IMG/VR virus record: IMGVR_UViG_3300020213_000001
DNA length: 64,000 nt
Source of the DNA: a virus
Strand: one strand, 5' to 3'
The translations under genes and the position numbers were made by a program. Shown here piece after piece: positions 1 to 54,997 of the stretch (positions are counted from its first letter, which is position 1; each line of letters starts with the position of its first letter). The notes below the pieces were generated by a model that did not search any database, was not told where the DNA came from, and was given only the letters and a program-made list of their open reading frames with translations.

Positions 1-105
1 TATTGCCTATGAATACAAGGTTTGGCCAGTAGAGAGGTTATTGACCAGGAGTTAGCCGTTAAGCGATTGCATCAACATTAAGTTTCTAAACAGGCGATTG
101 ATTAG
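1..105 (+). pseudogene. Internally deleted remnant of the Ala-rich cassette family
   Basis: Frame 2 reads IAYEYKVWPVERLLTRS* (family: AYSDKIWVAKRVLTRSQ). It then jumps to gattgcatcaa and directly to aacattaagtttctaaacaggcgattgattag, identical to the 3' end of copy 952..1536. Confidence 0.7.
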
Positions 106-113
106 TATTTAGC

Positions 114-142
114 TTGACAAGCTTGGTTTTATATGGGATAAT
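114..142 (+). promoter_or_regulatory. sigma70-type early promoter (TTGACA-17-GATAAT, TGn extended -10)
   Basis: TTGACA 114-119, 17-bp spacer, GATAAT 137-142; the element recurs upstream of family members. Confidence 0.85.
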
Positions 143-166
143 GTACTGAGAGAGTGAGATAGAAAG

Positions 167-898
167 ATGCAAGTTAACAAAGAATTTCTGAAAAGCCTTA
201 AGCCTTGTGCTGACAGGTATAATGTTTTTCTAGAGCATAATGCTGATTTTAACGGAAGCCTTAATGATTTCCTGGACTTACCTAGTGTCAGCTATGAAGA
301 TAAGGTTTGGGTTGCAGAAAAGATTTTAACCCAAAATCAAGCTGTTAGCTGGTGTATTCTTTGTGCTGAAAGTGTGCTGTCTATTTTTGAATCAAAACAC
401 CCTGACAACCAAAGTCTTAGCAATTGCATCAATTTTCTTAAATCTATTAAGGATTTTAATAACTTGACAGATTCCCAATCATTAGAGATTAAGAGACATA
501 TAAAAGCCACCAAAGGTGCCGGCGATTTTGCCGCTGCCTGTTTTTTTGAATCTGCCACCCTTACTGACACCGATGCCACCGATGCTGCCACCGCCGATGC
601 TGCCTATGCTGTCCGCTGTGCTGCCCTTGCTGCCCGCTATGCGGCCCATGCTGCCCTTGCTGCCGCCGATGCTGTCAACTATGCCGCTCGTGCTGCCCTT
701 GCTGCCAATCACGCCACCAATGCTGCCACCGATGCCCATGCCACCCACTCATCTTCTTATGGCACTTCTGTCGCCAAGTATACCAATCACGCCACCACTC
801 TTGCTGCCGCCCGAGCTGCCAGCAATTCTATTAATGATGATGCCTTTCAAATTCAACAAGCTCTTAATCTTCAGTTTCTTAAGCAAGTGATTGATTAG
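167..898 (+). CDS. Cassette-family protein copy 1 (Imm5-like domain + Ala-rich variable region)
   Basis: Family motifs MQxNKEFLKSLxPCADRY, DKxWVA, WxxLCAESV, QQALNLQFLKQV. Confidence 0.9.
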   Translation: MQVNKEFLKSLKPCADRYNVFLEHNADFNGSLNDFLDLPSVSYEDKVWVAEKILTQNQAVSWCILCAESVLSIFESKHPDNQSLSNCINFLKSIKDFNNLTDSQSLEIKRHIKATKGAGDFAAACFFESATLTDTDATDAATADAAYAVRCAALAARYAAHAALAAADAVNYAARAALAANHATNAATDAHATHSSSYGTSVAKYTNHATTLAAARAASNSINDDAFQIQQALNLQFLKQVID

Positions 899-906
899 TA
901 TTTAGC

Positions 907-935
907 TTGACAAGTTTAGTTTTATATGGGATAAT
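907..935 (+). promoter_or_regulatory. sigma70-type early promoter
   Basis: TTGACA 907-912, 17 bp, GATAAT 930-935. Confidence 0.85.
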
Positions 936-951
936 GTACTGAGAGAGAGAG

Positions 952-1536
952 ATGAAGATTGATAAAGACGTATTGAAAGACTTAAACCCTTGCGCTGACA
1001 GATATAAGAATTTTCTAAAACACAATGCTGATTTTAGCGGAAGTCTTAGTGAATTCATGGACTTACCTACTGTTGCTTACTCTGATAAAATTTGGGTTGC
1101 AAAAAGGGTATTAAACAAGAATCAAGCTGTGAGTTGGGCAACGCTATGCGCTGAAAGTGTATTACATATGTTTGAAGAACAACACCTGGATGACAAGCGC
1201 CCTAGAGATTGCATCGATTTTCTTAAGTCTGTTAATGATTTTGATAGCTTGACAGTTGATCAAGCGTTAGGGATTAAAAGGCACGAAGAAGCCGCCAACG
1301 CTGTCCGCTTTACTGCCTTCCATGCCACCAATGCTGTCAGTGCTGCCAATGCCACCGAAGCTGCCGCCGCATGTGCTGCCAACTATGTCGACTACTTTGC
1401 CGAATATGCTGTACAGGCCGCCCATTATGCCATCGAAGCTGCCACCTATGCCAGCGATTCTATTAACAGTGCCGATAAAGAAAAACAAGAAGCTCTTAAC
1501 ATTAAGTTTCTAAACAGGCGATTGATTAGTATTTAG
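952..1536 (+). CDS. Cassette-family protein copy 2
   Basis: Same motifs; a 1-bp deletion near the end changes the tail to NRRLISI. Confidence 0.9.
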   Translation: MKIDKDVLKDLNPCADRYKNFLKHNADFSGSLSEFMDLPTVAYSDKIWVAKRVLNKNQAVSWATLCAESVLHMFEEQHLDDKRPRDCIDFLKSVNDFDSLTVDQALGIKRHEEAANAVRFTAFHATNAVSAANATEAAAACAANYVDYFAEYAVQAAHYAIEAATYASDSINSADKEKQEALNIKFLNRRLISI

Positions 1537-1537
1537 C

Positions 1538-1566
1538 TTGACATGCTTAGTTTTATATGTGATAAT
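1538..1566 (+). promoter_or_regulatory. sigma70-type early promoter
   Basis: TTGACA 1538-1543, 17 bp, GATAAT 1561-1566. Confidence 0.85.
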
Positions 1567-1586
1567 GTACCAATAGGGAGAGAGAG

Positions 1587-2195
1587 ATGAAGATTGATAA
1601 AGAATTCTTGAAAGACTTAAAGCATTGTGCTGACAGGTATGAATATTTGCTAAGGCATCACGGTGAGTTTAACGGAAGTCTTAGTGATTTCCTGGACTTA
1701 CCTAATCTTGATCTTGACTACGACGATAAAATCTGGGTTGCTATGAGAGTATTGACCAGGAGTCAAGCAATTAAATGGGCAATGCTCTGCGCTGAAAGCG
1801 TTGTTCATATTTTTGAAGATAAGCATCCCAATGATAAAAGCCTTAGAGATTGCATCGAGTTTCTTAAGAATGTTAATGATTTCGATAACTTGATAAATGC
1901 CAAGGCATTAGAATTTAAGAGACATATGAGGACTGCCTGGGTTGACACCGATTTTACCGCTGCCTGTTTTTTTGAATCTGCCGCCATAGGTGCCGCCGAT
2001 ATCGGAACCTCTGACCAAGCTGCCATCTATGCCGCTCGTGCTGCCCTTGCTGCTCGTGCTGCCCTTGCTGCCAATCACTCCACCATTGCTGCCACCCTTA
2101 CTGCCATCCGTGCTGCCAGCAATTCTATTAGTGCTGCCGCTTGGCAAAATCAAGAAGCCTTGAATCTTCAGTTTCTTAAGCAAGTGATTAATTAG
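1587..2195 (+). CDS. Cassette-family protein copy 3
   Basis: Same conserved N- and C-terminal motifs. Confidence 0.9.
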   Translation: MKIDKEFLKDLKHCADRYEYLLRHHGEFNGSLSDFLDLPNLDLDYDDKIWVAMRVLTRSQAIKWAMLCAESVVHIFEDKHPNDKSLRDCIEFLKNVNDFDNLINAKALEFKRHMRTAWVDTDFTAACFFESAAIGAADIGTSDQAAIYAARAALAARAALAANHSTIAATLTAIRAASNSISAAAWQNQEALNLQFLKQVIN

Positions 2196-2205
2196 TAGAA
2201 TTATA

Positions 2206-2234
2206 TTGACATGTCTGGTATTATATGTGATAAT
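2206..2234 (+). promoter_or_regulatory. sigma70-type early promoter
   Basis: TTGACA 2206-2211, 17 bp, GATAAT 2229-2234. Confidence 0.85.
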
Positions 2235-2258
2235 GTACTAACAGAGAGTGAGAGAGAT

Positions 2259-2813
2259 ATGAAGATTGATAAAGAATTCTTGAAAAGCCTTAGCCCTTGC
2301 ACTGACAGATATAGGCATTTCCTAGAGCATCACGCTAATTTTAGCGGAAGTCTTAATGATTTCCTTGACTTAACTAATCTTGACTACGATGATAAAATTT
2401 GGGTTGCAGAAAAGGTTTTAACCAAGAATCAAGCAATTAGCTGGGGAGTTCTTTGTGCTGAAAGCGTAGTGCATATTTTTGAAGCAAGATACCCAAAAGA
2501 CAAACGCCTTAGCAATTGTATCAATTTTCTTAAAACAGTTAAGGATTTCGATAACTTGACAAATGCTGAAAAGTCGGAGATTAAAAGACATATGAGTGAT
2601 GCCCATGCTGCCCGCCATGACGCCCATGCCTCCGACGCTGCCCGTGCTGCCCACGCTGTCTACTGTGCCGCCTATGCTGTCTACTGTGCTGCCAACTATG
2701 CCGTCTATGCTGCCCTCCTTGCAGCCGCTGATACCGGTGAAGATGCCAACGCTGCCGGGAATAACCAGCAAGAGCTTAACATTCAGTTTTTGAGAATGGC
2801 ATGTAGCCTATAA
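2259..2813 (+). CDS. Cassette-family protein copy 4
   Basis: Start moved from 2211 (inside the promoter) to MKIDKEF at 2259, matching paralogs. Confidence 0.9.
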   Translation: MKIDKEFLKSLSPCTDRYRHFLEHHANFSGSLNDFLDLTNLDYDDKIWVAEKVLTKNQAISWGVLCAESVVHIFEARYPKDKRLSNCINFLKTVKDFDNLTNAEKSEIKRHMSDAHAARHDAHASDAARAAHAVYCAAYAVYCAANYAVYAALLAAADTGEDANAAGNNQQELNIQFLRMACSL

Positions 2814-2843
2814 CCTCTTATCAACTTTAAAGGATTTTTTAAA

Positions 2844-3032
2844 ATGGAATTAGAAGCGTTTAAAAGCCGTTTAGAAGCATTCGATTGGGACTATGCTAGT
2901 ACCACTAGTCCCCAAGTCTATTGGTCAGGAGAACGCCTAGAGCAGGCCCTAAAGGACGATGCCCGTATGTTAGGTCGAGACGCTCAAATGCTTTACGTTA
3001 GATATAAAACCCAATCGACTAGTAAGGTATAG
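2844..3032 (+). CDS. Hypothetical protein inserted in the array
   Basis: 62-aa ORF with AAGGA RBS. Confidence 0.6.
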   Translation: MELEAFKSRLEAFDWDYASTTSPQVYWSGERLEQALKDDARMLGRDAQMLYVRYKTQSTSKV

Positions 3033-3045
3033 GGTAGGTTTTACA

Positions 3046-3405
3046 ATGAAAACAGTTTACCGCGTTGAACATGTTCTAAGTCGTAAGGGGCCCTATACCG
3101 GGATGAACTATTTCGACGAATATAAATGGAAAAAGGAAATGCATTGTTCTGCCACTGGTAGATCAGGGCCTATAGATGATAGTGTAATAGGAATGGGATT
3201 AGAGGAATTTTCAGAAAAGTGGGGCCGTGAAAATGTATTGTTCGGCTTTAGCTCTATAGAGCAATTAAAAAATTGGTTTACCAATGAAGAGCTGGCAGCA
3301 CTAGCTGATATGGATTATAAAATTCAGACGTATAAAACTAAATACATTAAAGCTAGTAAATTCCAAGTGGTTTTTGTTTGTCCCAAAGAAATCGAATATG
3401 ATTGA
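3046..3405 (+). CDS. Phage hypothetical protein (VYRVEH...FGFSSIEQLKNWF type)
   Basis: 119-aa ORF with a motif pattern recalled from early phage proteins. Confidence 0.7.
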   Translation: MKTVYRVEHVLSRKGPYTGMNYFDEYKWKKEMHCSATGRSGPIDDSVIGMGLEEFSEKWGRENVLFGFSSIEQLKNWFTNEELAALADMDYKIQTYKTKYIKASKFQVVFVCPKEIEYD

Positions 3406-3424
3406 TATTAAAAAGGAGGTACGT

Positions 3425-3997
3425 ATGCGAATTAATAAAGAATTCTTGAAAAGCTTAGAACCTTGCGATAATAGATATAATAATTATCTAGAACACCACT
3501 CCGATTTTGATGGTAGTTTTAGTGATTTCCTAGACTTAGACGGCATCCACTACGAAGATAACCTTTGGGTTACTAAAAAGATATTAAATAAGAATCAACT
3601 AATCAAATGGGCTATCCTCTGCGCTGAAAGTGTTGTGCCTATTTTTGAACACGAATGTCCGAATGATAACAGCGTTAGTAATTGTATCAATTATTTAAAG
3701 ACTTTTGAAGATTTTGACACACTGACTATCGATGAAAGGTTAGAAATTGAAAAACATGTAGATGCAAACAATAAACACTTCCGCGCTTTTCCCAGGACCA
3801 CCGATTATATCTACACTGCCCGTGATGCCTCCCGTGCTGCAACTTATTATGCAGCTTATTCTGCAGCTTCCTATGCATATACTAACCCGGCTTTCGATAC
3901 TGCCAGCTATACTATAGTCTCCAATACCAGCTATACTACCAAGCAAAATCAAAAAGCTCTTAACCTTCAGTTTCTTAAACAAGTAACTAGTGTTTGA
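3425..3997 (+). CDS. Cassette-family protein copy 5 (most divergent)
   Basis: AGGAGG RBS before ATG 3425 (MRINKEFLKSLEPC). Confidence 0.9.
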   Translation: MRINKEFLKSLEPCDNRYNNYLEHHSDFDGSFSDFLDLDGIHYEDNLWVTKKILNKNQLIKWAILCAESVVPIFEHECPNDNSVSNCINYLKTFEDFDTLTIDERLEIEKHVDANNKHFRAFPRTTDYIYTARDASRAATYYAAYSAASYAYTNPAFDTASYTIVSNTSYTTKQNQKALNLQFLKQVTSV

Positions 3998-4009
3998 AAA
4001 GGACTCCAT

Positions 4010-4639
4010 ATGCAAATCAATAAAGAATTCTTGAAAAGCCTTAACCCCTGTGCTGACAGGTATAAGGTTTTTCTAAAACATCACGGTAAGTTTAACGGAA
4101 GCTTTAGCGAATTCATGGACTTACCTAATCTTGACTATGAAGATAAAATCTGGGTTGCAAAAAGGGTATTAAACAAGAATCAAGCCGTTAGCTGGGCAAT
4201 TCTCTGTGCTCAAAGCGTAGTACCTGTTTTTGAGAAGGAATACCCGGATGACAAGCGCATTAGAGATTGCATCAATTTTCTTAAATCTATTGATGATTTC
4301 AATAACTTGACCTATATTGAACGGTCGGAGATTGAAAAACACTTCGATATTAGCGCAGACATTGTATCTGAATACGCCTGCGACTATGCTGTCAACTGTG
4401 CCGCCACCCATGCCTTCTATTATGTCGTCCATGCTGCCCACTATGTCGTCACCAGTGTTACCGCCAGTGCTGCCTATGTCGCCGGTGCCGAATATGCTGC
4501 CCTTGCTGCCCGCTATGCGGCCCATGCTGCCCTTGCTGCCAATGCTGTCCGCTCTGCCAGTAATTCTATTAATGATGACGCTTGGCAAAATCAACAAGCC
4601 TTGAATCTTCAGTTTTTGAGAATGGCTTCTAGTTTGTAA
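4010..4639 (+). CDS. Cassette-family protein copy 6
   Basis: Same conserved motifs. Confidence 0.9.
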   Translation: MQINKEFLKSLNPCADRYKVFLKHHGKFNGSFSEFMDLPNLDYEDKIWVAKRVLNKNQAVSWAILCAQSVVPVFEKEYPDDKRIRDCINFLKSIDDFNNLTYIERSEIEKHFDISADIVSEYACDYAVNCAATHAFYYVVHAAHYVVTSVTASAAYVAGAEYAALAARYAAHAALAANAVRSASNSINDDAWQNQQALNLQFLRMASSL

Positions 4640-4642
4640 GGG

Positions 4643-4671
4643 CTGACATGTCTGGTATTATATGTAACAAT
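4643..4671 (+). promoter_or_regulatory. Variant early promoter (CTGACA-17-AACAAT)
   Basis: Spacer identical to that of the promoter at 2206. Confidence 0.65.
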
Positions 4672-4697
4672 AGGTTAAGAGAGGCTGGGATATATTT

Positions 4698-5300
4698 ATG
4701 CAAATTAACAAAGAATTCCTGAAAAGTCTTAGACCTTGTGTTGGAATTTATAAGCGTTTTCTAAGGCATAGTGGAGATTTTGATGGAAGCTTTAGTGAAT
4801 TCCTAGACTTACCTAATCTTGACTACGACGATAAAGTTTGGGTTGCAGAAAAGGTTTTAACCAAGAATCAAGCTGTTAAGTGGGCAACGCTATGCGCTGA
4901 AAGTGTTGTACATATGTTTGAAGAACAGTGCCCAGGCAATAAATGTCTTAGTAATTGCATCGATTTTCTTAAATCTGTTAATGATTTCAATAGTTTGACT
5001 GATACTGAAAGGTTAGGGGTTGAGAGTTATGCTGCCGCTGCCTATGATGCCTATGATGCTGCCTACAGTACAGTATATGACTCTAGTGGTGCCGAATATG
5101 CTGCCCTTGCTGCCCGCTATGCGGCCCATGCTGCCCTTGCTGCCGCTGACCATTCTGCTTTCTATGCTGCCGGTGCTGCCAGCACTTCCACCTCTGCCCA
5201 TGCTACCAATTTTGCTATAGTATACGGTGACACCTATGATGGTGTTAAACAACAACAAGCCTTAAATATTAAATTTCTTAAACAAGTAACTGGTGCTTAA
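4698..5300 (+). CDS. Cassette-family protein copy 7
   Basis: Same conserved motifs. Confidence 0.9.
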   Translation: MQINKEFLKSLRPCVGIYKRFLRHSGDFDGSFSEFLDLPNLDYDDKVWVAEKVLTKNQAVKWATLCAESVVHMFEEQCPGNKCLSNCIDFLKSVNDFNSLTDTERLGVESYAAAAYDAYDAAYSTVYDSSGAEYAALAARYAAHAALAAADHSAFYAAGAASTSTSAHATNFAIVYGDTYDGVKQQQALNIKFLKQVTGA

Positions 5301-8376: not shown

Positions 8377-9457
8377 GTCTACTCTAAACCCCATTCAGCA
8401 GGCAATTGAGGAAAGTGCTCTACTAAAGGAACGCGAATACGAGATTCGTAAAAATAAAGTAGACATTCAACATCAGGAGCTTACCGAACGATTAGCCAAG
8501 AAAAAAGCCTTTGGCTCTCTTCCCATTGGTAAGAACATCAGGGAAAGATCCGACAAATTAATTATAGAAAACGAAGAGTATATCAAGCTAGCCAAGGGTG
8601 CTGTTACCTTTTTGGGCATGGATGTATTTAAAGACAAAGTAGCACTGTTTCCAAGAAACATTATCCTCATAGGTGCTGAGACTGGTACTGGAAAAAGCAC
8701 AACATGTGCCAACTTTATTCGTAGCTATTTAAAAGAAGGTAGGCGAGTACTCATTGTCACAAATGAGGAAAACAGGACAGACATTTTAAATAGGGTTATA
8801 TTCCTCAATAAGGGGTGGGTTTACTCAAACCACGACGAGATTACGGAAGAACAGTTGGTGGAGTGTAAGCGACTATATCCCATCCTAATGCAACGTATTG
8901 AAATTATTGACGATATGTTTAACGGCATAGGAGGAACTACCACTACTCTAGAGGGGATAGTAAGCATCTATAAGACTCTGAAAGAACAAGCCGCTGCAGG
9001 TGAAAAGCCCTACGACGCTGTTTTAATTGATTACATTCAAAATATTAGAACTAGCGTAGATGCCCCGTCACTTGCACAGTGGCAGGTTTTGCAAAGACTT
9101 GGCTCTTTTATTGATAATTTTAAGGGTGAGTACAACGCGCCTACCATTCTTTTCTCTCAGTTAAAGGCAGCTACAGAGGCAAACGGCTCATACAAAGAAA
9201 GGATCGAGGGCTATAAGGCCATTTCTAACCATGCCACTACGGCAATGGAGGTTAAAATGGACAGAGAAAACCTTAGAACTGAGTGGATATTTAGAAAAAA
9301 TAGATTCAAAGATGCTGTTGGTATTTCTGTGATTACAGGGTACGATAGAGGTAGGTACGTGGAATACAATCAGGAATTTATGAATGTGGTTCGCCTCAAA
9401 AACGACGCAAAAAAGCACAAAGAACTGTTAAGTAAGACTTTTAATAAAAAGGAATAA
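8369..9457 (+). CDS. DnaB-like (SF4) replicative helicase
   Basis: GAETGTGKST, VLIDYIQ, FSQL, RKNRF motifs. Confidence 0.85.
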   Translation: MSESTLNPIQQAIEESALLKEREYEIRKNKVDIQHQELTERLAKKKAFGSLPIGKNIRERSDKLIIENEEYIKLAKGAVTFLGMDVFKDKVALFPRNIILIGAETGTGKSTTCANFIRSYLKEGRRVLIVTNEENRTDILNRVIFLNKGWVYSNHDEITEEQLVECKRLYPILMQRIEIIDDMFNGIGGTTTTLEGIVSIYKTLKEQAAAGEKPYDAVLIDYIQNIRTSVDAPSLAQWQVLQRLGSFIDNFKGEYNAPTILFSQLKAATEANGSYKERIEGYKAISNHATTAMEVKMDRENLRTEWIFRKNRFKDAVGISVITGYDRGRYVEYNQEFMNVVRLKNDAKKHKELLSKTFNKKE

Positions 9458-9458
9458 C

Positions 9459-9767
9459 ATGTTGAAAATTAAAGAATTTTTTCTAGTATCTACCCTTAAG
9501 TTATTGACTTTTCTACAAGTAAAGACACTTTCTTTACACAATAACAGGCTGTATTACTACCTAACATCTCTTCATTTCAAGCTATACTTTAAAAAAGAGA
9601 TTATGGAAAGTGCAGAAGAAGGTGGTGTTGAATTTGAACTAGCCGCCGTTAGACATGCCGACATGGTGGTTAGCGTTCTGTTCAAGGAACTTAAAAACAA
9701 AGAAAAACTACACAAAAGTGCGATTAGTGCCTTTAAAAGCAATTTGATTTTAAACATTTCCCTATGA
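9459..9767 (+). CDS. Hypothetical protein
   Basis: Packed ORF between helicase and primase. Confidence 0.55.
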   Translation: MLKIKEFFLVSTLKLLTFLQVKTLSLHNNRLYYYLTSLHFKLYFKKEIMESAEEGGVEFELAAVRHADMVVSVLFKELKNKEKLHKSAISAFKSNLILNISL

Positions 9768-10633
9768 AATCAACTAGTCAGCAGTTTTTAGACCTATTTT
9801 TTAAGCCAGGAGAGCAGGTTTGCGTTTCCCACGACGGCTATGGTTATAAAAGCGTTGAACAGGGTAGTTTGAATGGTGATATTGAGATGTTATCGCCAAA
9901 TGAAAATGTAAGGATTAAACACATCAAGGAAAGCCAGATTAACTTGATTTCAATTAATCCAGTTAATGGCTTTAGACGGGATGAAAACGTAACGGCATGG
10001 CGTAGTTTTATGGTGGAATTAGACGACGGTACAGCTAAAGAGCAAATGGATTATATTAAAGGTTTAGACATGCCCTATAGCATTTGTGTATTTTCGGGGA
10101 ATAAGTCCCTGCACTTTGGAATAGTTTTAGACGAAGATCTTCCTAGTGAAGGGATGTGGCGCGATGTTGCTGAGTGGATTTTAAATATTGCCAGCAAGGC
10201 AGACCAGGTTGCTAAAAACCCCACTAGGTCGATCAGATTCCCTGGTAATATAAGACTGACAGGTAAGAAAGAGATTCAGAAACTTATTGAAATTAAAGGA
10301 AAGGTTAAATACGCAGATTTAGCTAAATGGCTTCAAAAACACCCAAAACTAAACCCTGCTGAGATTAGAAAATACGTAAGAACATCGATCCCCAAGACCA
10401 TTAACGGAATTCCCGAATGGGTTTTGAATAAACTAAGCTACGGAATTGATGAGTCTAGAGGGCGAAACAATGAGTGGTTCTCTATCGGTATGGAGCTAGC
10501 CAAGTCTGGTTTTAATGACCAGGAGATTATTGACTATGCTCAGGAGTTTTTTGTTCCCGAAAGGGATTTTACTGTTAAAGAGTGGAAGTCAATCATGCAA
10601 CATGCATATAGAAGAGCACTGAGGAAAACATGA
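9764..10633 (+). CDS. AEP/RepB-like primase with PriCT-like C-terminus
   Basis: FMVELDD, SGNKSLH, NPTRSIRFPG, GRNNEWF motifs. Confidence 0.75.
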   Translation: MKSTSQQFLDLFFKPGEQVCVSHDGYGYKSVEQGSLNGDIEMLSPNENVRIKHIKESQINLISINPVNGFRRDENVTAWRSFMVELDDGTAKEQMDYIKGLDMPYSICVFSGNKSLHFGIVLDEDLPSEGMWRDVAEWILNIASKADQVAKNPTRSIRFPGNIRLTGKKEIQKLIEIKGKVKYADLAKWLQKHPKLNPAEIRKYVRTSIPKTINGIPEWVLNKLSYGIDESRGRNNEWFSIGMELAKSGFNDQEIIDYAQEFFVPERDFTVKEWKSIMQHAYRRALRKT

Positions 10634-13365: not shown

Positions 13366-14359
13366 AAAAAGCCCTAACTTATTCAGACGTTCTTTTGATT
13401 CCGCAATATTCTGAAATTAAATCTCGTGCTAACGTGTCCACTCAGATTACGTCTAAATGCGGTAAGGTTACGGCTGAACTGCCCGTTTTTCCGCTAACAT
13501 GGACTCAATTTCCTCAGTAGACATGATGCAATACATCAACAGAAAGGGCGGAATTGGCTCTTTGCATAGGTTTATGACAGTTGAAGAGAATGTTGAACAA
13601 TACCTACAAAGTCCTGAGAATACCTTCTGTTCTTTAGGTCTTAATGATCAAAAACGCTTTGAAGAGCTGTACATGGCGGGTTGTAGACGGTACATGCTAG
13701 ACCTTGCTCATGGACACTCTAGTATGATGTCAGATGCCCTTAAATGGCTTAAAAACAAGGCTAATGACATTGTAATAGTAGCCGGGAACGTGTGTACAGC
13801 AGATGGAGCGGCGTTTTTAGTAGATCAAGGTGCGGACATAGTGAAAGTCGGCGTTGGTCCAGGTAGTGTTTGCACTACTAGAGATAAGACAGGCCACGGG
13901 TATCCACAATTAAGTGCTGTTATGGAGTGTTCTAGTGCTATTCCGAACAACAGTGTCATTGCCGATGGAGGGTTAAAACACCCAGGAGACATTGTTAAAG
14001 CTTTAGCCGCCGGTGCTGACTTCGTTATGCTTGGTTCTATGTTTGCTGGTAGTTACTACACACCAGGTAGGGTTTCCACCGTTAATTTTTTGGCGTATAA
14101 AACATACCGTGGGATGGCTTCAGAAGATGTATACGAAGAGTATTCTAAGGCTGGCAACTACAAATGCCCCGAGGGTGTTAGTGTAACTGTTCCCTATAAA
14201 TGCGAAGCCGAAACCGAAAAAATCGTACTTAATATTGTAGGCGGATTGCGCTCTGGACTCACCTACAGTGGTGCGAAAAACATCAAAGATCTTCAAGCAA
14301 AAGCTAAATTTGTTGAGGCTTCCTCAGGAACCAAGATTGAGAATGGGACTTTAAAGTGA
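13362..14359 (+). CDS. IMP dehydrogenase / GMP reductase family protein (no CBS domains), frameshifted near 13490
   Basis: GTG 13362 gives ALTYSDVLLIPQYSEIKSR; downstream frame has SANMD, DLAHGH, GNV, GVGPGSVCTTR, IADGG, YRGMAS, PEG, GGLRSGLTYSG. Confidence 0.9.
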
Positions 14360-15880: not shown

Positions 15881-17230
15881 TTAAGACAAGCCTCCGTGGC
15901 CGTTAGAGCAACCCGCTAAACCGGCTTTTGTTACTGTTAAAGTACCAAAGCTTGTTGCTGCGCCAGTAGTAGCTATAGTTACGTAGTCTATTGTGTTGTA
16001 AGACAAAGATGCAGCGGCATTGAAACCTCCAGCCCAAACGCCTCTGACCTGACTAGAGCAGGAAGCTAAATTCCACCGTCCAAGAGTCAAGTTACCAAAA
16101 GTTGTTCCGTTTCCAAGAGTGGCTATTGTCAAATATTCTGCGGCAAGAACTACGGGGCCATTGTCACCGCCGCCAATCATTGCCCTGGTAGAAGACGAAC
16201 ATGCGGCAGAGTATGACCTAGAGTTGGCCAAAGTGCCAAAACTTATAGCATTGCCGGTAGTCGCGATGGTCACATAGTCGATCACATTCAAGACCGTCGG
16301 GGTGTTAGCACCAGAAAAGATAGCGCGTGTGGTGGAGGCACATGCTGCAACACCAGTCCTTAGACCTGTTAAATCTCCAAAATCCACAGCGTTACCTAAG
16401 GTAGCAATAGTCACATAGTCTATTATGTCTCTCCTTCCGGCATTAATACCCGCGACCACCAACCCGCGTGTGTTATTAGCTGTGGCAGATGGCTCAGACC
16501 TAGCAACTGTAAGGTCACCAAAGTCAATGGCGTTCCCAAGAGTGGAGAAGGTCACGTAGTCAATAATATTTGACGCAGACGATCCCGCCCACAAACCTCG
16601 CGTTCTATTTCCCATAGAGGCGACACTATAAGCGGTGCGAGTCAAATTTCCAAAACTAATAGCGTTACCTGTTGTTGCTATTGATATATATTCAATAGCA
16701 GATGAAGGCGCATCGCCGCCTCCAAACAAACCCCTAACAGAGGTACTATCTCCTGCAAAATTTGCAATTCTAGTCCAGGTGTTAGCTGTTGATGTATAAG
16801 ATACGGAGTTGTAGTTAGTACTGATAACATCTAAGCCAAAAGTCCCGTCTATTTCGTTTGATCCGAAAGAAACAGTTATTTTGTTAGTGGCTGAAGTTCC
16901 CATTAGATCTTTAATTGTAACTATAAAATCTATCGCAGGAGCAGGCATAGTGATCGAAATAGGACCGGAGGTTGTGTCTATGTTTATTGTTTTTCCGTTA
17001 TCGCTAGATAAAACGGTATAGTCTGCTGTTTTAGTAGAAGAAATACTTCCTGAAGTTACTCCTCCTGCCTTTCCAACTATTACCCAAGCACCACTTTTGT
17101 ATTGCCACAATCCAATTTCTCTAATGGTACCGTCAGAGAAGTAAAAAGCACCTTCAGAAGGAGAAACTGGATCTGCTGCTTGGGGAGGAAGATTAATGCC
17201 CTTGTTTATTTGTTGAAAATCTCTAGACAT
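15881..17230 (-). CDS. Fibre/receptor-binding protein paralog A with six ~50-aa propeller repeats
   Basis: RGLFGGG...IDYVTIATTGNA.xFGxLT repeats; KTADYTV fibre motif. Confidence 0.75.
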   Translation of the reverse strand: MSRDFQQINKGINLPPQAADPVSPSEGAFYFSDGTIREIGLWQYKSGAWVIVGKAGGVTSGSISSTKTADYTVLSSDNGKTINIDTTSGPISITMPAPAIDFIVTIKDLMGTSATNKITVSFGSNEIDGTFGLDVISTNYNSVSYTSTANTWTRIANFAGDSTSVRGLFGGGDAPSSAIEYISIATTGNAISFGNLTRTAYSVASMGNRTRGLWAGSSASNIIDYVTFSTLGNAIDFGDLTVARSEPSATANNTRGLVVAGINAGRRDIIDYVTIATLGNAVDFGDLTGLRTGVAACASTTRAIFSGANTPTVLNVIDYVTIATTGNAISFGTLANSRSYSAACSSSTRAMIGGGDNGPVVLAAEYLTIATLGNGTTFGNLTLGRWNLASCSSQVRGVWAGGFNAAASLSYNTIDYVTIATTGAATSFGTLTVTKAGLAGCSNGHGGLS

Positions 17231-18615
17231 TATAAGCCTCCATGACCGTTAGAGCAAGCCTTGTTGTAGCCTTTTATTACTAGAAGACTGCCGAAATTTG
17301 CGCCATTTCCTAACGTAGCTATCGTAACTTGTTCAAGAACGGCGGAGTGGCCGCCGCCGCCGGAAATACGGCCCCCAGCAAAAAAGCCCTTAATAGTGCT
17401 AGATGCTGCTGCCAAGTTCATTTTAGCTTCTGTTAGTGTTCCAAATGTGGCGGAGTTTGCAGTAGTAGCGATGGTAAGGTACTCGATGTGATTGTAATAT
17501 GTTCCGCCTGCACCCGGATCGTAATATCCACCACCTATTAGGCCTCTGGTACTTGACGAACACCCCGCCATCCAAGTTTTTATCTGAGTTATGTTTCCAA
17601 AACTTGTGGCATTTCCGGTAGTCGCAATAGTTACGTAATCAATAGTGGTGTAATAAGTAGTGTTATTCTGTCCTCCAGACCAAACACCTCTGGTTGGTGA
17701 AGCCAACGCAGCGGCAGCCTCTCTAGATACGGTCAAATCTCCAAAATCAATTGCATTTCCGGTACTAGCAATGCTTATATAGTCGATGATGTTAACATAT
17801 GTTGAGGTATAACCCCCGCCAAATAAACCTCTGGTAGAAGAGGAACAACCTCCAGCGCCTACCCTACCAACTGTAAGGTTACCGAACGAAACCGAGTTTC
17901 CGGTAATGGCGAAAGTAATGTATTCGATTAAAATCAAAGAGCCAGAACCACCGGCAGCAATTATTCCCCTAGTCCTACTTGCGCAAGTTCCGTAGTCAAA
18001 TTTTCCAGTTGTTGACAGTGCCCCAAAGCTAACAGAGCTGGCTGGAGCGGTCATGTTGAAATACTCTAAGGTGTTTTCAGTCACCCCACTATAACCAGTA
18101 CCTACCACCATTCTTGAAACGGGGGCGGCACCGTTAAAATAAGCAACACGAACCCAGTCTGTTCCATCAGATGTAAACGAAATAGAGTTATAATTGGTTT
18201 TAATAAAATCTAGACCTGCGATACCATCAATTTTAGTCGCGTCACTAGTCAAGATGATTATGTTATTAGTAGCAGAAACCCCACCGACATCTTTAATGGT
18301 GACGTTAAAATCAGCCACAACTGCTGGAAGAGTTATGGTAACAGGATTAGAAGTACTGTCAACGTTTATAACCTTACCTTTATCGCTAGATAAAACGGTA
18401 TAGTCTGCTGTTTTAGTAGAAGAAGCACCTTCAGACACTATACCACCGGAGCCGCTTCCGCCTATTACCCAAGCACCACTTTTGTATTGCCACAATCCAA
18501 CTGCACGAATGGTACCGTCAGAGAAGTAAAAATCTCCGTCTACTGGCGTAGATGGGTCTGTTGCTTGCGGAACAAGGGTTATTCCTTTATTTATTCTTTG
18601 AAAGTTATTAGCCAT
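17230..18615 (-). CDS. Fibre/receptor-binding protein paralog B
   Basis: Same N-terminal anchor and repeats as paralog A. Confidence 0.75.
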   Translation of the reverse strand: MANNFQRINKGITLVPQATDPSTPVDGDFYFSDGTIRAVGLWQYKSGAWVIGGSGSGGIVSEGASSTKTADYTVLSSDKGKVINVDSTSNPVTITLPAVVADFNVTIKDVGGVSATNNIIILTSDATKIDGIAGLDFIKTNYNSISFTSDGTDWVRVAYFNGAAPVSRMVVGTGYSGVTENTLEYFNMTAPASSVSFGALSTTGKFDYGTCASRTRGIIAAGGSGSLILIEYITFAITGNSVSFGNLTVGRVGAGGCSSSTRGLFGGGYTSTYVNIIDYISIASTGNAIDFGDLTVSREAAAALASPTRGVWSGGQNNTTYYTTIDYVTIATTGNATSFGNITQIKTWMAGCSSSTRGLIGGGYYDPGAGGTYYNHIEYLTIATTANSATFGTLTEAKMNLAAASSTIKGFFAGGRISGGGGHSAVLEQVTIATLGNGANFGSLLVIKGYNKACSNGHGGL

Positions 18616-20393
18616 TATAGTCCACCATGTACGTTAGAGCAGCCACCAAAAGCTCTTCTAGCGACGGTTAAATTTCCAAAATTAGTAGAATTTCCTAGAG
18701 AAGCAATAGTAAAAAATCCCATAGTTAACGAAGCAACTGCACCGTCAAGACCACCGGCAAATACGGCTCTTAATGGACTAGCACATCCTGCCAACTGTGT
18801 TCTTGTTGCGGACAAATTGCCAAAATTGATAGCATTTGCCGCAGTAGCTATGGTTATATAGTCTACGTTAATAACACCCGAGGCACCACCACCACCAAAT
18901 AAACCTCTGGTAGAAGAAGAAGCTCCGCACTCGTAATTTCTAGAGCCCGTCAGGTTGCCAAAGCTAATCGCGTTGCCAGTGGTAGCTATAGTAACGTAAT
19001 CCATAACTGCGGTTTCAGAACCAGCAATACCACCCGCAAATACACCGCGCGTAGTAGAGGATAATGCTCCTGTACCTGACCTAGCAAGGGTTAAGTTTCC
19101 AAAGTTAGTGGCGTTACCGACTGTAGCAAAAGTTACGTAGTCTATTGTATTCCTTACAACGGCGGCGGCATCTCCTCCACCAGCGACGCCACGAGTAGAA
19201 CTACCACACCCGGCGACATATAGCCTAGCCACAGTGAGTGTACCGAAGGAAACTGCGTTTGCTAGTGTTGCAAAAGACACATAATCTATTAAGTTTGAGT
19301 CAGAACCAGTAGAGCCGCCGATAAATAACGCACGCAATGAACTGGAATGTGCACCTAACTGTACCCTACCGGTAGATAAGGAGCCGAATGAAGTCGCATT
19401 TGAAGCCGTAGGTATAGTTATATGATCTATAACTACCGAGTTAGTTGGGATACCGCCTCCAAACAAACCTCTAGATAAGGGGCTACTACCGTTAAACCTT
19501 GCAACCCTAAACCAATTAGTTCCGTCAGAAACTAATGTTACGGCTGAAAAGTTAGTCTCTATAAGTTCAATTGTAGTTGAAATCCCGTCTAAATTTCCAG
19601 ACAGAATTACATGTATTTTGTTTGTAGCTGAAGTTCCCTTGTAGTCCTTGATAGTGGCTATGAATTTATCAGTAGGAGCCGGTAGGATCACTTCAATTGC
19701 ACCGGCAGAGGTGTCTATGTTTATAATTTTGCCATTATCTGTAGTTAAAACAGTATACGGGTTTATGGTGGTTTCTTTGATTGATATGTTGTCAAATTGC
19801 AAAGTAACAGGATCGCCGCCGTTATATAGCTGTATGAAAACATTCGAAGATAAGGCTGTAAATACACCCGTTGAAGTTACCCAGCCGGTAGTCGAATTTG
19901 TGGCAGAAAAAAGCAGAGTGCCGCTATTATTAGCACCGTTATAAACATTAATTGTCGTGTTTCCAGTTCCACTAACCATTCTAGAATCGGCAGAAAATGT
20001 GTATATTACTCCGGTTGCTAGAGAGGTAAGGGCTTGAGTAGCAGGTCCGCCGCCAGCGCTGTAGGTTTGCTGAATGACACCCGCAGTCCATGAGTTGTTA
20101 GACCCTAGAGTCCACCCGGTCGCATTGATATCTAAAGTACCGTTTGTAACTAATTCTGAACCACTGGTTACATACCCAAGAAGTGTTCGGTCTTTAGTGC
20201 TGCTAACTCCGCCGCTTCCAATGCCTCCGCTTCCAACAATAGAGGCCCAAGCACCACTTTTGTATTGCCATAGTCCAACTGCACGAATGGTACCGTCAGA
20301 GAAGTAAAAATCTCCGTCTACTGGCGTAGATGGGTCTGTTGCTTGCGGTTGCAATACAAGCCCTCTACTTCTTTGTTGAAAATCTATAGCCAT
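18615..20393 (-). CDS. Fibre/receptor-binding protein paralog C with inserted carbohydrate-binding-like domain
   Basis: Same architecture plus ELVTNGT...GW...FDNISIKE insert. Confidence 0.75.
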   Translation of the reverse strand: MAIDFQQRSRGLVLQPQATDPSTPVDGDFYFSDGTIRAVGLWQYKSGAWASIVGSGGIGSGGVSSTKDRTLLGYVTSGSELVTNGTLDINATGWTLGSNNSWTAGVIQQTYSAGGGPATQALTSLATGVIYTFSADSRMVSGTGNTTINVYNGANNSGTLLFSATNSTTGWVTSTGVFTALSSNVFIQLYNGGDPVTLQFDNISIKETTINPYTVLTTDNGKIINIDTSAGAIEVILPAPTDKFIATIKDYKGTSATNKIHVILSGNLDGISTTIELIETNFSAVTLVSDGTNWFRVARFNGSSPLSRGLFGGGIPTNSVVIDHITIPTASNATSFGSLSTGRVQLGAHSSSLRALFIGGSTGSDSNLIDYVSFATLANAVSFGTLTVARLYVAGCGSSTRGVAGGGDAAAVVRNTIDYVTFATVGNATNFGNLTLARSGTGALSSTTRGVFAGGIAGSETAVMDYVTIATTGNAISFGNLTGSRNYECGASSSTRGLFGGGGASGVINVDYITIATAANAINFGNLSATRTQLAGCASPLRAVFAGGLDGAVASLTMGFFTIASLGNSTNFGNLTVARRAFGGCSNVHGGL

Positions 20394-26197: not shown

Positions 26198-26226
26198 TTG
26201 ACTATTTTTTCTGTATAGGTTATAAT
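26198..26226 (+). promoter_or_regulatory. sigma70 promoter of the solo cassette
   Basis: TTGACT 26198-26203, 17 bp, TATAAT 26221-26226. Confidence 0.8.
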
Positions 26227-26247: not shown

Positions 26248-26868
26248 ATGCAAATTAACAAAGAATTCTTGAAAAGCCTTAAACCCTGTGCTGACAGGTA
26301 TAAGGTTTTTCTAGAACACCATGCTGATTTTAGCGGAAGTCTTAATGATTTCCTGGACTTACCTGATCTTGACTACGACGATAAAATTTGGATTGCAAGG
26401 AAGGTATTAATCAGGAATCAACTGGTTAAATGGGCAACGCTATGCGCTGAAAGTGTATTACATATGTTTGAAGATAAGCATCCAGGTGACAAACGCCTTA
26501 GTGATTGCATCAATTTTCTTAAAACCGTTAATAATTTCAATATCTTGACATATGCTCAACTATTAGAGGTTAGTAGACATATAAGCGCTACCAATAGTGC
26601 CCGCTTTGTTTCCAGTGCTGCCTGTGTTTCCAGTGATTCCGCCAGCGCTGCCCTTGCCGTCTATTTTGCCGTCTATGCCGCCAACTATGCCTATGCTACC
26701 TATGCCACCGAAGCTGACTATGCTGCAGCCTATACCGCCCATTATGCCATCGAAGCTGCCACCTATGCCACCGAATCTGCCAAGGATGCCGGTAAAGATG
26801 ATGACGCTGCTCAACAAAATCAAGAAGCTCTTAACATTAAGTTTCTTAAGCAAGTGATTAGTTTGTAA
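26248..26868 (+). CDS. Cassette-family protein copy 8 (solo, antisense to the tail module)
   Basis: AGGAG RBS, MQINKEFLKSLKPCADRY start at 26248. Confidence 0.9.
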   Translation: MQINKEFLKSLKPCADRYKVFLEHHADFSGSLNDFLDLPDLDYDDKIWIARKVLIRNQLVKWATLCAESVLHMFEDKHPGDKRLSDCINFLKTVNNFNILTYAQLLEVSRHISATNSARFVSSAACVSSDSASAALAVYFAVYAANYAYATYATEADYAAAYTAHYAIEAATYATESAKDAGKDDDAAQQNQEALNIKFLKQVISL

Positions 26869-41293: not shown

Positions 41294-41950
41294 TCATGCG
41301 CTTTGTATAACCGTTTCTACTTCAACACTATTCTTAAAAGGCTGTACGTACATCTCATAAAGGCTTGATTTTAAACGATTTCTATAAGTAATCCCCATAG
41401 GCTGTAGTATGTCTTCGTATTTACGAATTACATTCATTGCTTCCTTTAATGTTAACTTACTAATGGTTTTCTCGTCAACCTCAATCTCAATAAAATGCTG
41501 TACAGAGTTATCTTCACCCCTAACTGTGTAGAATACCAAGGTAGTGTCGTCCTTCATCTTATAGATATGGCAGGCCTTCCAGATCGAGAAGTTGCGCTGA
41601 TACCCCATCATCTCCGCACCTGCGAAAATAGTTTCAGCGGGAGTTCCATCTACTCTCCAGTTGACTTCTTTACGTTTAATGTTAGACTTAGCACCTATGG
41701 GTTTCTCTTTCATAGTCACTTCTGCACGCTTTTCAGTTGTAGCCTTTCTAAAGCGTAGGAAAGATCCGTCTGGCTTAGTGAAATAGATATCCGGCCCTTC
41801 ACAGTAGGTAAATGTTTTATAGTCTAATTCGCTTACGATAGCCTTAAACCTGTACTGACTATCACCAGTTACTTTGTATTTTGCTTCAAACTCGGTGTGA
41901 TGTGGAAGCAATTCATTTTCTAAATTTTTCAATAACTCTTTTGAATCCAT
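41294..41950 (-). CDS. CYTH-domain (triphosphate tunnel metalloenzyme) protein
   Basis: EFEAKY (ExExK), DIYF, LRFRK, FIEIE, SLYEM. Confidence 0.8.
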   Translation of the reverse strand: MDSKELLKNLENELLPHHTEFEAKYKVTGDSQYRFKAIVSELDYKTFTYCEGPDIYFTKPDGSFLRFRKATTEKRAEVTMKEKPIGAKSNIKRKEVNWRVDGTPAETIFAGAEMMGYQRNFSIWKACHIYKMKDDTTLVFYTVRGEDNSVQHFIEIEVDEKTISKLTLKEAMNVIRKYEDILQPMGITYRNRLKSSLYEMYVQPFKNSVEVETVIQSA

Positions 41951-42314
41951 TTTCCAATACCTCAATAATTATAATCATAACGCTAGTAAAAACAGCTTCA
42001 AAATACATATTAAGAGCACATAGACAGCCTATAGCAGCGCATATCCAGATTATTGCCGCTGAATTAAGGCCCTTGACTTTATTTCTGTCAAGTATAATAG
42101 CTCCACCGCCAACAAACCCAACACCACTTACTATTTGAGAAATAACCCTTCCTGCGTCAAAAACCTGAACTCCCATCAGCGTAAAAAGAGCAGCTCCAAC
42201 ACAGATTAGTGCAGAAGTCTTTAATCCTGCGTCTTTTTGCTTATACTCACGCTCCACCCCTATCAGAGTTCCACAAAATAGCGATGTCAATATAGGCAAT
42301 ACGAAGTCATTCAT
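41913..42314 (-). CDS. MgtC/SapB family membrane protein
   Basis: IGVERE, AGLKT, RVISQIVSGVGFVGGG, GLNSAAIIW. Confidence 0.9.
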   Translation of the reverse strand: MNDFVLPILTSLFCGTLIGVEREYKQKDAGLKTSALICVGAALFTLMGVQVFDAGRVISQIVSGVGFVGGGAIILDRNKVKGLNSAAIIWICAAIGCLCALNMYFEAVFTSVMIIIIEVLENGFKRVIEKFRK

Positions 42315-42379: not shown

Positions 42380-43529
42380 TCACTTAAGCTTTCCAAAGAT
42401 GAATACCCTCTCCCTGTTTTGAGCTAGTCCGAAGTTTTTACTATTTACCACTTCAAAATCTACATCATATCCCAAGCTACTCAAACCCTTCAATATTTCA
42501 ATGAAGGTTTCACCCTTATTATGGTTTAGCAGTCCTTTAACGTTTTCAGCTAAAATGTATTTTGGCTTATGTTTTTCAATAATATCAAAGACATTGAAGA
42601 TAAGCTTGCCCTTCTTCTCATCCCCAAACCCCTTACGTAGACCGGAAATTGAAAGGGCCTGACAGGGAAATCCGAACGTTAAAAGATCAAACTGTGGTAC
42701 ATCATCCCTTTCTACTAACTTGGTTGCATCGTGAAAATTGGGAATGTTTGGATAGTGGTATTTTAACACACTACTGGCATGTTTATCAAATTCACAGTGC
42801 CCAACTACCTTGAATCTATCTGTAAAGCCTAGCTCAGTCCCGCCGCACCCAGAGAAAAGAGACATAACTCTTATTTCCTCATTAGAAGGGAACATGGTTT
42901 TTAGTATGTGGGCAGATACGGGGCTGGATACGCCATTACCTGCCATTTTATATTTTTGATTATCCGAAATTTTAACTACTTCACCTTTTTGATCAATGCC
43001 ACTATCTAGATGGTTATCAGGGTAACCCTGAAGCCTACAGCATTCGGTAGGTGTAAGTTTGCGGATACGTAGTGTGTTGATTTTTAATGCTTTTTGACAG
43101 ACCTTTAACGCTGGAGCTAGATTGTTCTTATCATAGACCTGGTATCCGTCTCTATACCCGTTCCAGTTCAGGTCTTCATCGCCGTGTCTTGGGTCAACTG
43201 TTCCGGCTATCACTACCCTGGCTACAAAATTTTGAGTACTCTGGTTACTACATCCATCACCCGTACTAAGTGTGTTGGCCTCACCATTTACCTTACCTCT
43301 AACGTCTACATGCTTATCTCTAGTTGATTTAGAATAGGCTACGGTTTGCACAATATAAGCTTCTTTCGATATATTAGCACTTATGCAGTTTGAAACTTCA
43401 TCATTTCTTGGAACCAGCACCTTACCTCTTCTTGGACAAAAATCTTTGCCGTCTTTCATAGATTGTTTTCTTACTTTTTTTAGCTTCATCTGTTCTGGTT
43501 TCGGTCAATGCTTTTGACTCTACCCTCAC
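42380..43529 (-). CDS. Circularly permuted C5-cytosine DNA methyltransferase (frameshift in the A7 run at 43475-43481)
   Basis: Order TRD, IX (RKLTPTECCRLQGYP), X (YKMAGNGVS), I (FSGCGG), IV (GFPCQ), VI (ENVKG), VIII (QNRERVFI). Confidence 0.85.
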
Positions 43530-43759
43530 TTATCCTTCCTGAACGAAACCATACGCTCTTGAAATTTAGATTCTTTTATAATCTTCTCTACTACCTCATT
43601 TTTAAGGTAATATTTTTCATTAACATCAACTTCTAAGATATCCATCAACCTTGGTGTCGGTATTCCGTTGTCTAGCGGAATACTGAAATCAACTAGATTA
43701 ATTTCAGGGAAATTCTTTTTAATTTTATCTTTAATCTTTAAAACACACTTAATACTCAT
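43526..43759 (-). CDS. Small split-off methyltransferase segment
   Basis: LMDILEVDVNEKYYL resembles the segment that follows motif VIII in C5 MTases; GTGA overlap with the MTase start. Confidence 0.55.
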   Translation of the reverse strand: MSIKCVLKIKDKIKKNFPEINLVDFSIPLDNGIPTPRLMDILEVDVNEKYYLKNEVVEKIIKESKFQERMVSFRKDK

Positions 43760-54327: not shown

Positions 54328-54633
54328 TCATTGTTTAACTTTAACCTCACCCTTCATCATAGCCTTGTGAGGCTGACAGTAGTATTTAAACCCCTTGTCT
54401 ACCTTTACCGTAAAAACCTGATCTTTCTTTAACATCTTTGATTCAATCTTGCCGTCTTCTGACACTACATTGTGAAGCATCGAGTCTTTATTGATGAATG
54501 TTATTGTTTCCCCCTTAGAAACCGTAATAGTAGAGGGGTTAAACTTCATGTTCTTGATTTCAACAACTTGCGAGTTTAACATAATGTAAAGCAGTAGACT
54601 AGACATTTTTAACTTCCTTTTTACTAGCGTCAA
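54328..54633 (-). CDS. Cupredoxin (plastocyanin/azurin-like type-1 copper protein)
   Basis: FNPSTITVSKGETITF, HNV, YYCQPH..MMKG copper ligands. Confidence 0.85.
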   Translation of the reverse strand: MTLVKRKLKMSSLLLYIMLNSQVVEIKNMKFNPSTITVSKGETITFINKDSMLHNVVSEDGKIESKMLKKDQVFTVKVDKGFKYYCQPHKAMMKGEVKVKQ

Positions 54634-54997
54634 TTCTCTCGTTAATCCTGATATTGTTTATATTAACAGCTTCTTCAGTGGGAACATAGTCCCTAAAAAA
54701 TCCATCTGGACAACGCTCGAAAATAGTAATATCTGTAAATTTTGGGCTATACCCACGATAGATCATCTCCTTAACTAGCATTTCAAATCTTTTCTGTAAA
54801 AACAACATTTTATTATAGAAGAACTTAACATGCCCCTTGCCTAGGGTGTAATTTTGCGGAATTTCATCAACACTAAATGGTTTTTTGCGCTTTAGAGATT
54901 TTTCAAGATTGCCAGGTAAGCGTGTGATTTCACGATACTCGGCAACAAGATGTTGTCTAATCAATTTACTTGGATCTATTACATTTATTCTGGTCAC
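54599..54997 (-). CDS. denV: Pyrimidine-dimer DNA glycosylase (T4 endonuclease V-like)
   Basis: GTG start then TRIN..QHLVAEYREITR, LGKGHVKFFYNK, EM..RG. Confidence 0.9.
   Translation of the reverse strand: MTRINVIDPSKLIRQHLVAEYREITRLPGNLEKSLKRKKPFSVDEIPQNYTLGKGHVKFFYNKMLFLQKRFEMLVKEMIYRGYSPKFTDITIFERCPDGFFRDYVPTEEAVNINNIRINERIDASKKEVKNV

Follow-up and report, generated by a model that had tools for sequence, protein, structure and literature searches.

What is gained by a phage that carries more than a dozen copies of one gene, each with a different middle? The question is raised by a 64,000-nucleotide (nt) stretch of viral DNA from IMG/VR record IMGVR_UViG_3300020213_000001 (hereafter the window), in which a sequence-only reading had placed 13 complete paralogs, an edge-cut copy and a remnant; all were found at the positions it gave. 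The 13 genes, named here by their starts, begin at 167, 952, 1587, 2259, 3425, 4010, 4698 and 26248 on the plus strand and at 61105, 61746, 62431, 63149 and 63857 on the minus strand, and encode proteins of 184-243 residues. The window's proteins are recorded on one 154,932-bp contig with at least 21 complete copies, seven further ones lying outside the window, where the edge copy is also complete. Intact, mutually distinct genes of the family occupy more than 12 kb, or at least 8% of the contig. The explanation that we favour, and to which we give an even chance, is that an Imm5-like family expanded into an early-expressed repertoire of binders that neutralise toxic proteins of host defence or of competitors; early expression and copy-specific binding are the parts that we infer. 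Comparisons were made with sister samples, namely 2018 microbial-mat metagenomes containing window DNA (Joint Genome Institute samples, probably from Antarctic lake mats), whose contigs carry L numbers.

Family membership and relatives

Each gene follows the same plan: about 110 residues make up the head and 51-117 the core, and a conserved helix comes last. Pairwise protein identity among the window paralogs is 65% over residues 1-45 and 61% over residues 46-113, drops to 30% in the core and recovers to 61% in the tail. The N-terminal part, originally termed constant, is indeed conserved between paralogs; its constancy is relative only, since between alleles of a single paralog it often differs more than the core. 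The GCT-GCC-NAT units on which the core was said to be built are likewise not the whole story, the core codons including GCC (20%), GCT (14%), TAT (7%), ACC (6%) and GAT (5.5%). A sharper rule is that the third position is a pyrimidine in 91% of core codons (96% at four-fold sites), compared to 60% in the N-terminal part and about 57-58% in other genes. Open frames crossing the cores in the +1 and antisense directions were rejected as genes, being a by-product of these pyrimidine-ending codons.

The suspected Imm5-like signature was borne out by profile comparison, all 13 copies matching the Pfam family Imm5_like (PF21805) at E<=0.05. When eight copies were scored singly, six (33.6, 32.0, 30.7, 28.7, 27.6 and 25.2 bits) passed the curated cut-off of 25 bits and two (22.0 and 18.4 bits) fell below it. 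The same cut-off applies to Imm5 proper (PF14423) and was not reached there, the best score being 19.7 bits and three of the 13 copies matching at E<=0.05. The likeness to PF21805 resides in a common W-A-x-x-C-A-E-S-V...F-E...P-x-D-K-R motif followed by Ala-rich helices. The copies differ from typical Imm5_like genes in number (at least 21, compared to 1-3), in having promoters of their own, in a chemically richer core and in lacking an adjacent polymorphic toxin. The genes are members of Imm5_like, and neither Imm5 proper nor toxin-linked immunity genes. The closest families listed were PF21805, PF14423 and PHROGs 38757, 21347 and 18326; a PADLOC search gave the paralogs no match, and look-ups for exact occurrences of three copies were likewise negative.

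Imm5-like Ala-rich genes are common in phages (more than 1,000 clusters at 50% identity), the head profile matching 1,017 such clusters, and the Atlas neighbours of the copies are Imm5-like clusters that are 88-100% viral. Our literature searches found no paper treating these phage genes and nothing relevant on Imm5-like/PF21805 in phages, Myxococcus phage Mx1, YjaG or paralog arrays; those on DUF416 mostly returned other DUF416x families. Relatives outside the mats share the head-core-tail plan, with simple Ala/Tyr/Asp cores that use GCT-type codons nearly throughout. In each of 19 other viral records there are 1-3 copies, and in Mx1 there are none. The mat copies form one clade (98/83), in which core entropy is 3.19 bits, as against 2.15 in 99 outside relatives, and Ala makes up 36% rather than 53%. 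The architecture is therefore old and common, and its expansion and enrichment are lineage-specific. Accordingly, the notion of a new system did not survive: the plan is family-wide and analogues have been published, namely Tweety gp54 (PMC9262239) and T4-type PeSL (PMC2839356). Three outside relatives show unusual forms: P0244 is 2,410 residues long and contains seven Imm5-like units, P0089 is fused to ankyrin repeats and P0078 has hardly any core.

Predicted structure of the variable core

Two copies, 63857 and 952, were modelled with AlphaFold2. In both models the head is confidently predicted, with predicted local distance difference test (pLDDT) values of 85-98. The core of the 63857 model (overall pLDDT 81) consists of helices 102-126, 132-157 and 163-189, closed by the conserved last helix. 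The core helices of the family are amphipathic, with one Ala face and one face rich in Tyr, His and Phe. Comparison of this model with 48,161 chains gave matches to the DUF416 structures 3F7C (Z 14.0, root mean square deviation (RMSD) 2.8 over 159 residues) and 2Q9R (Z 13.5). The model also matches SsdAI (7JTU chain B, Z 12.3, RMSD 3.5, 157 residues, spanning 2-193 of the chain), the next match of the search having Z 8.5. The weaker 952 model, in which part of the core is not resolved, aligns end to end with 7JTU_B at Z 6.1. Foldseek against the PDB with this model, the first to be made, gave nothing at E<=0.001 and a wide structure search with it, poorly folded as it was, reached Z 6.7 at best; PDB sequence searches with four profiles or proteins revealed no relative.

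A statistic independent of the models points the same way. Ala and aromatic residues in the core recur at spacings of 3, 4, 7 and 11, not 2, 5 or 6, and the 3/4/7/11 spacing is found likewise in outside relatives. Taken from the residues themselves, this is an amphipathic-helix pattern, helical rather than purely tandem. The expectation of a folded scaffold with a helical variable part is thus upheld by the predicted structures and the spacing together. The model shares the SsdAI/DUF416 fold, and the variable core would therefore replace helices of an immunity-type fold. What is new here, as predicted by modelling, is the match to SsdAI and DUF416 and the placing of the 'variable core' as three amphipathic helices of that fold, not as a loop. 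The likeness to SsdAI and to the DUF416/YjaG-family structures 3F7C and 2Q9R, as judged by model comparison, is that of an all-helical fold (Z 12-14 over about 157 residues); sequence identity is 10-13%. The copies differ in an extra N-terminal beta-hairpin/helix module of about 30 residues and in the low complexity and variability of the three helices, and SsdAI is a single cognate bacterial immunity gene.

SsdAI, an immunity protein composed entirely of helices, acts by obstructing the active site of SsdA, a toxin that deaminates DNA (PMC7901873). The definition of Imm5 rests on its partnership with that clade of deaminases, and it has been proposed as a multi-toxin scaffold (PMC3239186, PMC3482391). 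Read literally, such partnerships would have the copies neutralise a toxin of this phage or of its relatives, for instance the small zinc deaminase beside a third array. Besides the precedent that Imm5 and SsdAI both partner deaminases (PMC3239186, PMC7901873), this reading can draw on a 120-residue CMP/dCMP-type deaminase one gene from the array in L004, L012, L039 and L040 (PF00383; L012:205-567, L004:4448-4810, L039:11152-11514; weak PADLOC dCTPase match, E 6.5e-4). We consider it very improbable, since a single deaminase so conserved (99% identity from sample to sample) cannot account for copies that vary and number in the dozens. The enzyme is moreover small and stand-alone, without secretion or toxin architecture. 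Around four outside relatives, no gene within 10 kb was called as a deaminase. A complex prediction for one paralog with the phage's small deaminase scored 0.01, with only 3 rows in the partner alignment, and carries no weight in either direction.

Allelic variation and selection

The sister samples yielded 75 distinct complete alleles with about 40 core types and few broken copies. Alleles of one paralog often have an identical core and heads up to 39 nt apart, the differing patches being present in other paralogs, a pattern that marks the head as subject to conversion, by which it is both homogenised and shuffled. As the heads are converted, many core types remain the same from sample to sample. 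Where allele cores do differ, it is by block swaps and by in-frame insertions or deletions (indels) of 3, 9, 12, 18, 21, 24, 27 and 138 nt, none of which occur in the head, and exact blocks of 26-57 nt are common to the cores of non-adjacent window copies. These in-frame indels were rejected as proof of selection, since trinucleotide-periodic DNA slips in frame anyway.

The ratio of nonsynonymous to synonymous divergence (dN/dS) among the window paralogs is 0.29 in the head and 0.86 in the core; the corresponding polymorphism ratio (pN/pS), pooled over eight related pairs, is 0.32 and 1.31. The head, like the last helix, is constrained by purifying selection and the core is released, drift and positive selection in the core being inseparable by these ratios. 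A pN/pS above 1 was not accepted as proof of positive selection, given the codon constraint.

Three features might suggest that the copies are targets of a diversity-generating retroelement, a family of virion structural proteins or an artefact of assembly: the codons end in pyrimidines, as they would in a stop-poor library; one copy is situated within the tail module; and assemblers can be misled by repeats. These possibilities are largely refuted and we regard them as highly improbable. Differences between alleles fall over all base types, as patches and indels, with no adenine bias; those patches and indels are also present in other copies, and retroelement-like diversification was rejected on both counts. 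No reverse transcriptase was recognised among the open reading frames (ORFs) of the 64-kb window. The solo copy in the tail module is antisense to it and has a sigma70-type promoter. As to artefact, the DNA of the copies is only 70-85% alike, and separate assemblies contain them again: four runs, assembled independently, together cover the whole window in pieces, and the array is therefore not an assembly artefact. The exact cassette order, unlike the array itself, could be one.

Promoters

Nine copies had been credited with a promoter of their own. Nine array-type sites are indeed present, and the total is ten on inclusion of a site of another type before copy 26248. The array type consists of TTGACA or CTGACA, a 17-nt spacer with TTATATG inside and then GATAAT or AACAAT. 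The ten sites are the sole matches to the pattern on both strands of the 64 kb, each ending 9-28 nt before a family start codon; four of them score 11/12 to consensus and carry a TG extension. Copies 3425, 4010 and 61105 have no promoter of their own. Terminator-like stem-loops numbered five, compared to 5.1 in shuffled sequences, and none lay at a promoter. This class of promoter is not specific to the family, as it is also found before unrelated small genes that adjoin the arrays upstream of the window. The copies therefore look like ordinary early cassettes in what would be a region transcribed by the host polymerase.

Such surroundings, with copies sitting among small early-type genes under the same strong promoters, would suit diversified early binders that inhibit or redirect ordinary host proteins of transcription, proteolysis or signalling rather than toxins, and a helical scaffold with a variable aromatic face suits any protein target. 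We think host takeover of this kind distinctly unlikely, since the only functionally characterised structural relative neutralises a toxin (SsdAI, PMC7901873) and conserved host targets would not obviously require 40 core types.

Cassette shuffling

Promoter, ribosome-binding site and gene had been read as one unit, and such cassettes are really shuffled, as seen from junction types, an inversion and a missing cassette across the sister samples. Inverted, near-identical gene tails of about 95 nt lie at 2713-2806 (plus strand) in copy 2259 and at 63907-64000 (minus strand) in the edge copy. All four types of junction across this tail occur in the population, in different samples. Copy 2259 leads into the block of a 62-residue ORF and copy 3425 in the window and L009, and the edge type into copy 63857 in the window, L002 and L017; the alternative junctions are of 2259 with 63857 (L007) and of an edge-like copy with the 3425 block (L019). 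The alternative pair is the expected product of a 61-kb inversion, which would restore the Mx1 order of polymerase, SSB, small gene and RecA and would join nine copies, eight of them with promoters, into one array. The gene order of the window may thus be an inversion isomer of an Mx1-like ancestral order. The allele at the L007 junction is chimeric and therefore favours real recombination, short-read misjoins being the less favoured possibility.

Elsewhere, L039 and L040 contain a 3.9-kb block, with copies at its borders, in opposite orientations, although the adjoining 11.9 kb are 99.9% collinear, and L013 lacks one cassette. Contig joints were not used as evidence of rearrangement because other paralogs map there. 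Recombination within heads, tails and promoters changes the order and orientation of whole cassettes and removes some of them. Two observations concern the turnover of copies. Frameshifted family members are found at L012:6157-7430 and in L024, one of them being intact in L039 and L040, which amounts to birth and death within the population. In L012, three cassettes form a 1.9-kb inverted repeat (1140-3029 and 8544-10433) within one contig, either a real duplication or an assembly of mixed isomers.

Shuffling bears on a serious though rather unlikely alternative, a dosage or accordion model in which head and tail do one job on one target, the copies multiply through recombination of the repeated promoter cassettes, and the core, loosely constrained to be an 'Ala-faced helix', drifts and has no function specific to each copy. 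Core divergence is near neutral, with its dN/dS of 0.86; the fixity of third positions and the GCT-type repeats are family-wide products of slippage; cores can shrink greatly and broken copies exist; and unrelated genes are flanked by this promoter class too, which makes the region prone to recombination in any case. Such drift sits poorly with the retention of more than 12 kb as intact, mutually distinct genes, with a core complexity that rose specifically in the expanded clade and with the many core types that stay unchanged across samples despite conversion of the head.

Comparison with known systems

An analogue in design is gp54 of mycobacteriophage Tweety (Che8 gp57, PMC gp51), which has unique ends around a core of Ala-Ala-x-x repeats, with fixed third codon positions and a repeat number that varies between isolates (PMC2884959). 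According to a review, gp54 is a tunable counter-defence protein in which a changed repeat number allows escape from prophage defence (PMC9262239). Core length varies in frame between alleles here too (3-138 nt, all multiples of 3). The two are not detectably homologous: comparison with the gp54 family (phrog_3416) gave an hhalign probability of 3% and no common PHROG or Pfam family. Further, gp54 is a single gene with strict 12-nt repeats, whereas here many genes are involved, units of 3 and of 4 residues are mixed, and the copies exchange sequence with one another.

In T4-type PeSL, repeated sigma70-like promoters delimit non-essential genes and mediate modular shuffling (PMC2839356). The present cassettes resemble them in their repeated strong sigma70-like promoters with shuffling between, and differ in having no stem-loop terminator with the promoters and in recombining chiefly through the coding regions themselves. 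A further parallel, though one described in bacteria, is that of polyimmunity loci (PMC3482391), in which genes of the immunity type stand in tandem and toxins are absent.

Functional interpretation

If the copies are a binder repertoire, as we favour, the host's RNA polymerase would transcribe them as infection begins. Each would present a different surface on one scaffold, with which to bind and block a toxic protein, be it an effector of host defence or the weapon of a competing element, in the way that SsdAI acts on a deaminase toxin. The core is diversified by in-frame slippage of 9-27-nt units and by exchange of patches with other copies, and a resulting retuning of binding might be likened to that of Tweety gp54 against prophage defence. 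Such a library would widen coverage across host strains, recombination supplying new specificities. More tentatively, and on balance doubtfully, the set might be a recombination-fed 'antibody library', in which twenty or more immunity-fold scaffolds with differing helical faces are co-expressed at entry against a range of bacterial defence effectors, slippage and block exchange creating new specificities with no dedicated diversifying enzyme.

We counted in favour of the binder repertoire the fold match, Imm5_like membership, the helical spacing of residues, the contrast in dN/dS and pN/pS between head and core, the diversity of alleles, the single expanded clade with its higher core entropy, the low copy number in other viral records and the ten near-consensus promoters. 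Several points weigh against it. The variable part of the 63857 model has pLDDT values of only 59-69, identity to SsdAI is 10% with no sequence search connecting the two, and the best structural match, DUF416, is a family without known function. Helical bundles can reach Z near 13 from arrangement alone. SsdAI binds its toxin through a loop protrusion (PMC7901873), which may or may not correspond to the variable core. Core size in outside relatives ranges from nearly absent to more than 100 residues, and one mat allele has lost 43 core residues. With third positions restricted to T or C, the pN/pS of the core is overestimated, and relaxed selection would fit equally well. Finally, no polymorphic-type toxin gene, of the DYW deaminase or CdiAC type, lies beside the window copies, whose neighbours are paralogs, small ORFs, RecA, ligase, SSB-region genes and tail genes.

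One genome here supplies more than 20 natural variants and the sister samples 75 alleles, on a fold that suggests blocking of a toxic enzyme. Should copy-specific binding be true, the family would be both a counter-defence repertoire and a natural binder scaffold; should the library reading be true, one of the largest families of phage proteins that are still uncharacterised would acquire a function, as a natural repertoire of toxin inhibitors. Even without copy-specific binding, the copies serve as hubs at which recombination rearranges the 155-kb genome of the phage.

Organisation of the copies in the window

The first array (plus strand) opens with a remnant at 1-112, a degenerate N-terminal end joined to the constant 3' tail with the core missing, which begins upstream of the window in L007-L009. 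An array-type sigma70-like promoter with a TG extension (114-142, 11/12 consensus) precedes the 243-residue paralog with the longest core (167-898), whose alleles in other samples have 200 and 246 residues. There follow three further pairs of pattern-matching promoter and paralog: 907-935 with a 194-residue protein (952-1536, one of the modelled copies, with a 1-nt deletion in its last codons relative to other samples), 1538-1566 with a 202-residue protein (1587-2195) and 2206-2234 with a 184-residue protein (2259-2813), the last of these ending in the crossover region of about 95 nt that is nearly identical to the inverted edge copy. Two unrelated passenger ORFs of 62 and 119 residues (2844-3405) move together with copy 3425 (3425-3997, 190 residues), which is the most diverged, is promoterless and has the same or nearly the same core in four samples. 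The other promoterless member of this array (4010-4639, 209 residues) has a 57-nt core block in common with copy 4698 and one of 46 nt with copy 167. A pattern-matching promoter of the CTGACA variant (4643-4671) and a 200-residue paralog (4698-5300) complete the array.

The solo paralog (26248-26868, plus strand, 206 residues), antisense inside the tail-gene module, follows the promoter with the different spacer type (26198-26226, plus strand) and has a 36-nt core block in common with copy 952. On the minus strand, the promoterless 196-residue paralog at 60515-61105 is followed by DNA ligase. The remaining four have promoters: 209 residues at 61117-61746 (promoter 61793-61765), 209 residues at 61802-62431 (62488-62460), 216 residues at 62499-63149 (63190-63162) and 218 residues at 63201-63857 (63895-63867), this last being the copy whose model matches SsdAI and DUF416. 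At 63899-64000 (minus strand) the window edge cuts the 3' end of a further paralog of 192 residues, the protein being 97% identical to the tail of copy 2259.

The phage and its other genes

The window belongs to a large contractile-tailed phage with genes for baseplate, tape measure, RecA, helicase, primase, ClpP, ThyX and ligase. Its best cultured match is Myxococcus phage Mx1 (RecA 38%, a baseplate protein 32%), as is also the case for the DNA polymerase III alpha encoded just outside the window (34%). By these protein comparisons the phage is a distant relative of Mx1, a kinship too remote to fix the host. In GTDB genomes the close family profile had no matches and a wider profile matched two small contigs only, and hence gave no host clue.

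Among accessory genes are a member of the MgtC family (41913-42314), a pyrimidine-dimer glycosylase (54599-55015) and, by eye, an IMPDH/GMP-reductase-like gene (13499-14359) and a cupredoxin-like small protein (54328-54633). At 42380-43759 (minus strand) lies, as judged by eye, a cytosine methyltransferase-like gene with an apparently permuted motif order, followed by a short ORF that may be a split part of it. Three tandem paralogs of 449, 461 and 592 residues in the tail region (15881-20393, minus strand) have an N-terminal block in common and, at their C-terminal ends, repeats of about 43 residues; the first has no Pfam match.

A second variable low-complexity system is found on the minus strand, where a 108-residue gene (57892-58218) is followed by two Gly/Asp/Tyr-rich ORFs with GDG-type repeats (57644-57907 and 57500-57617). 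This block (about 57500-58218) is a local peak of guanine-cytosine content and only 85-87% alike between samples; the two GDG-type ORFs tested have no Pfam or PHROG match. Nearby, a SET-domain-like ORF (58829-59242, minus strand) contains an exact 30-nt tandem duplication, and the sister contig L007 differs there by one 30-nt gap.

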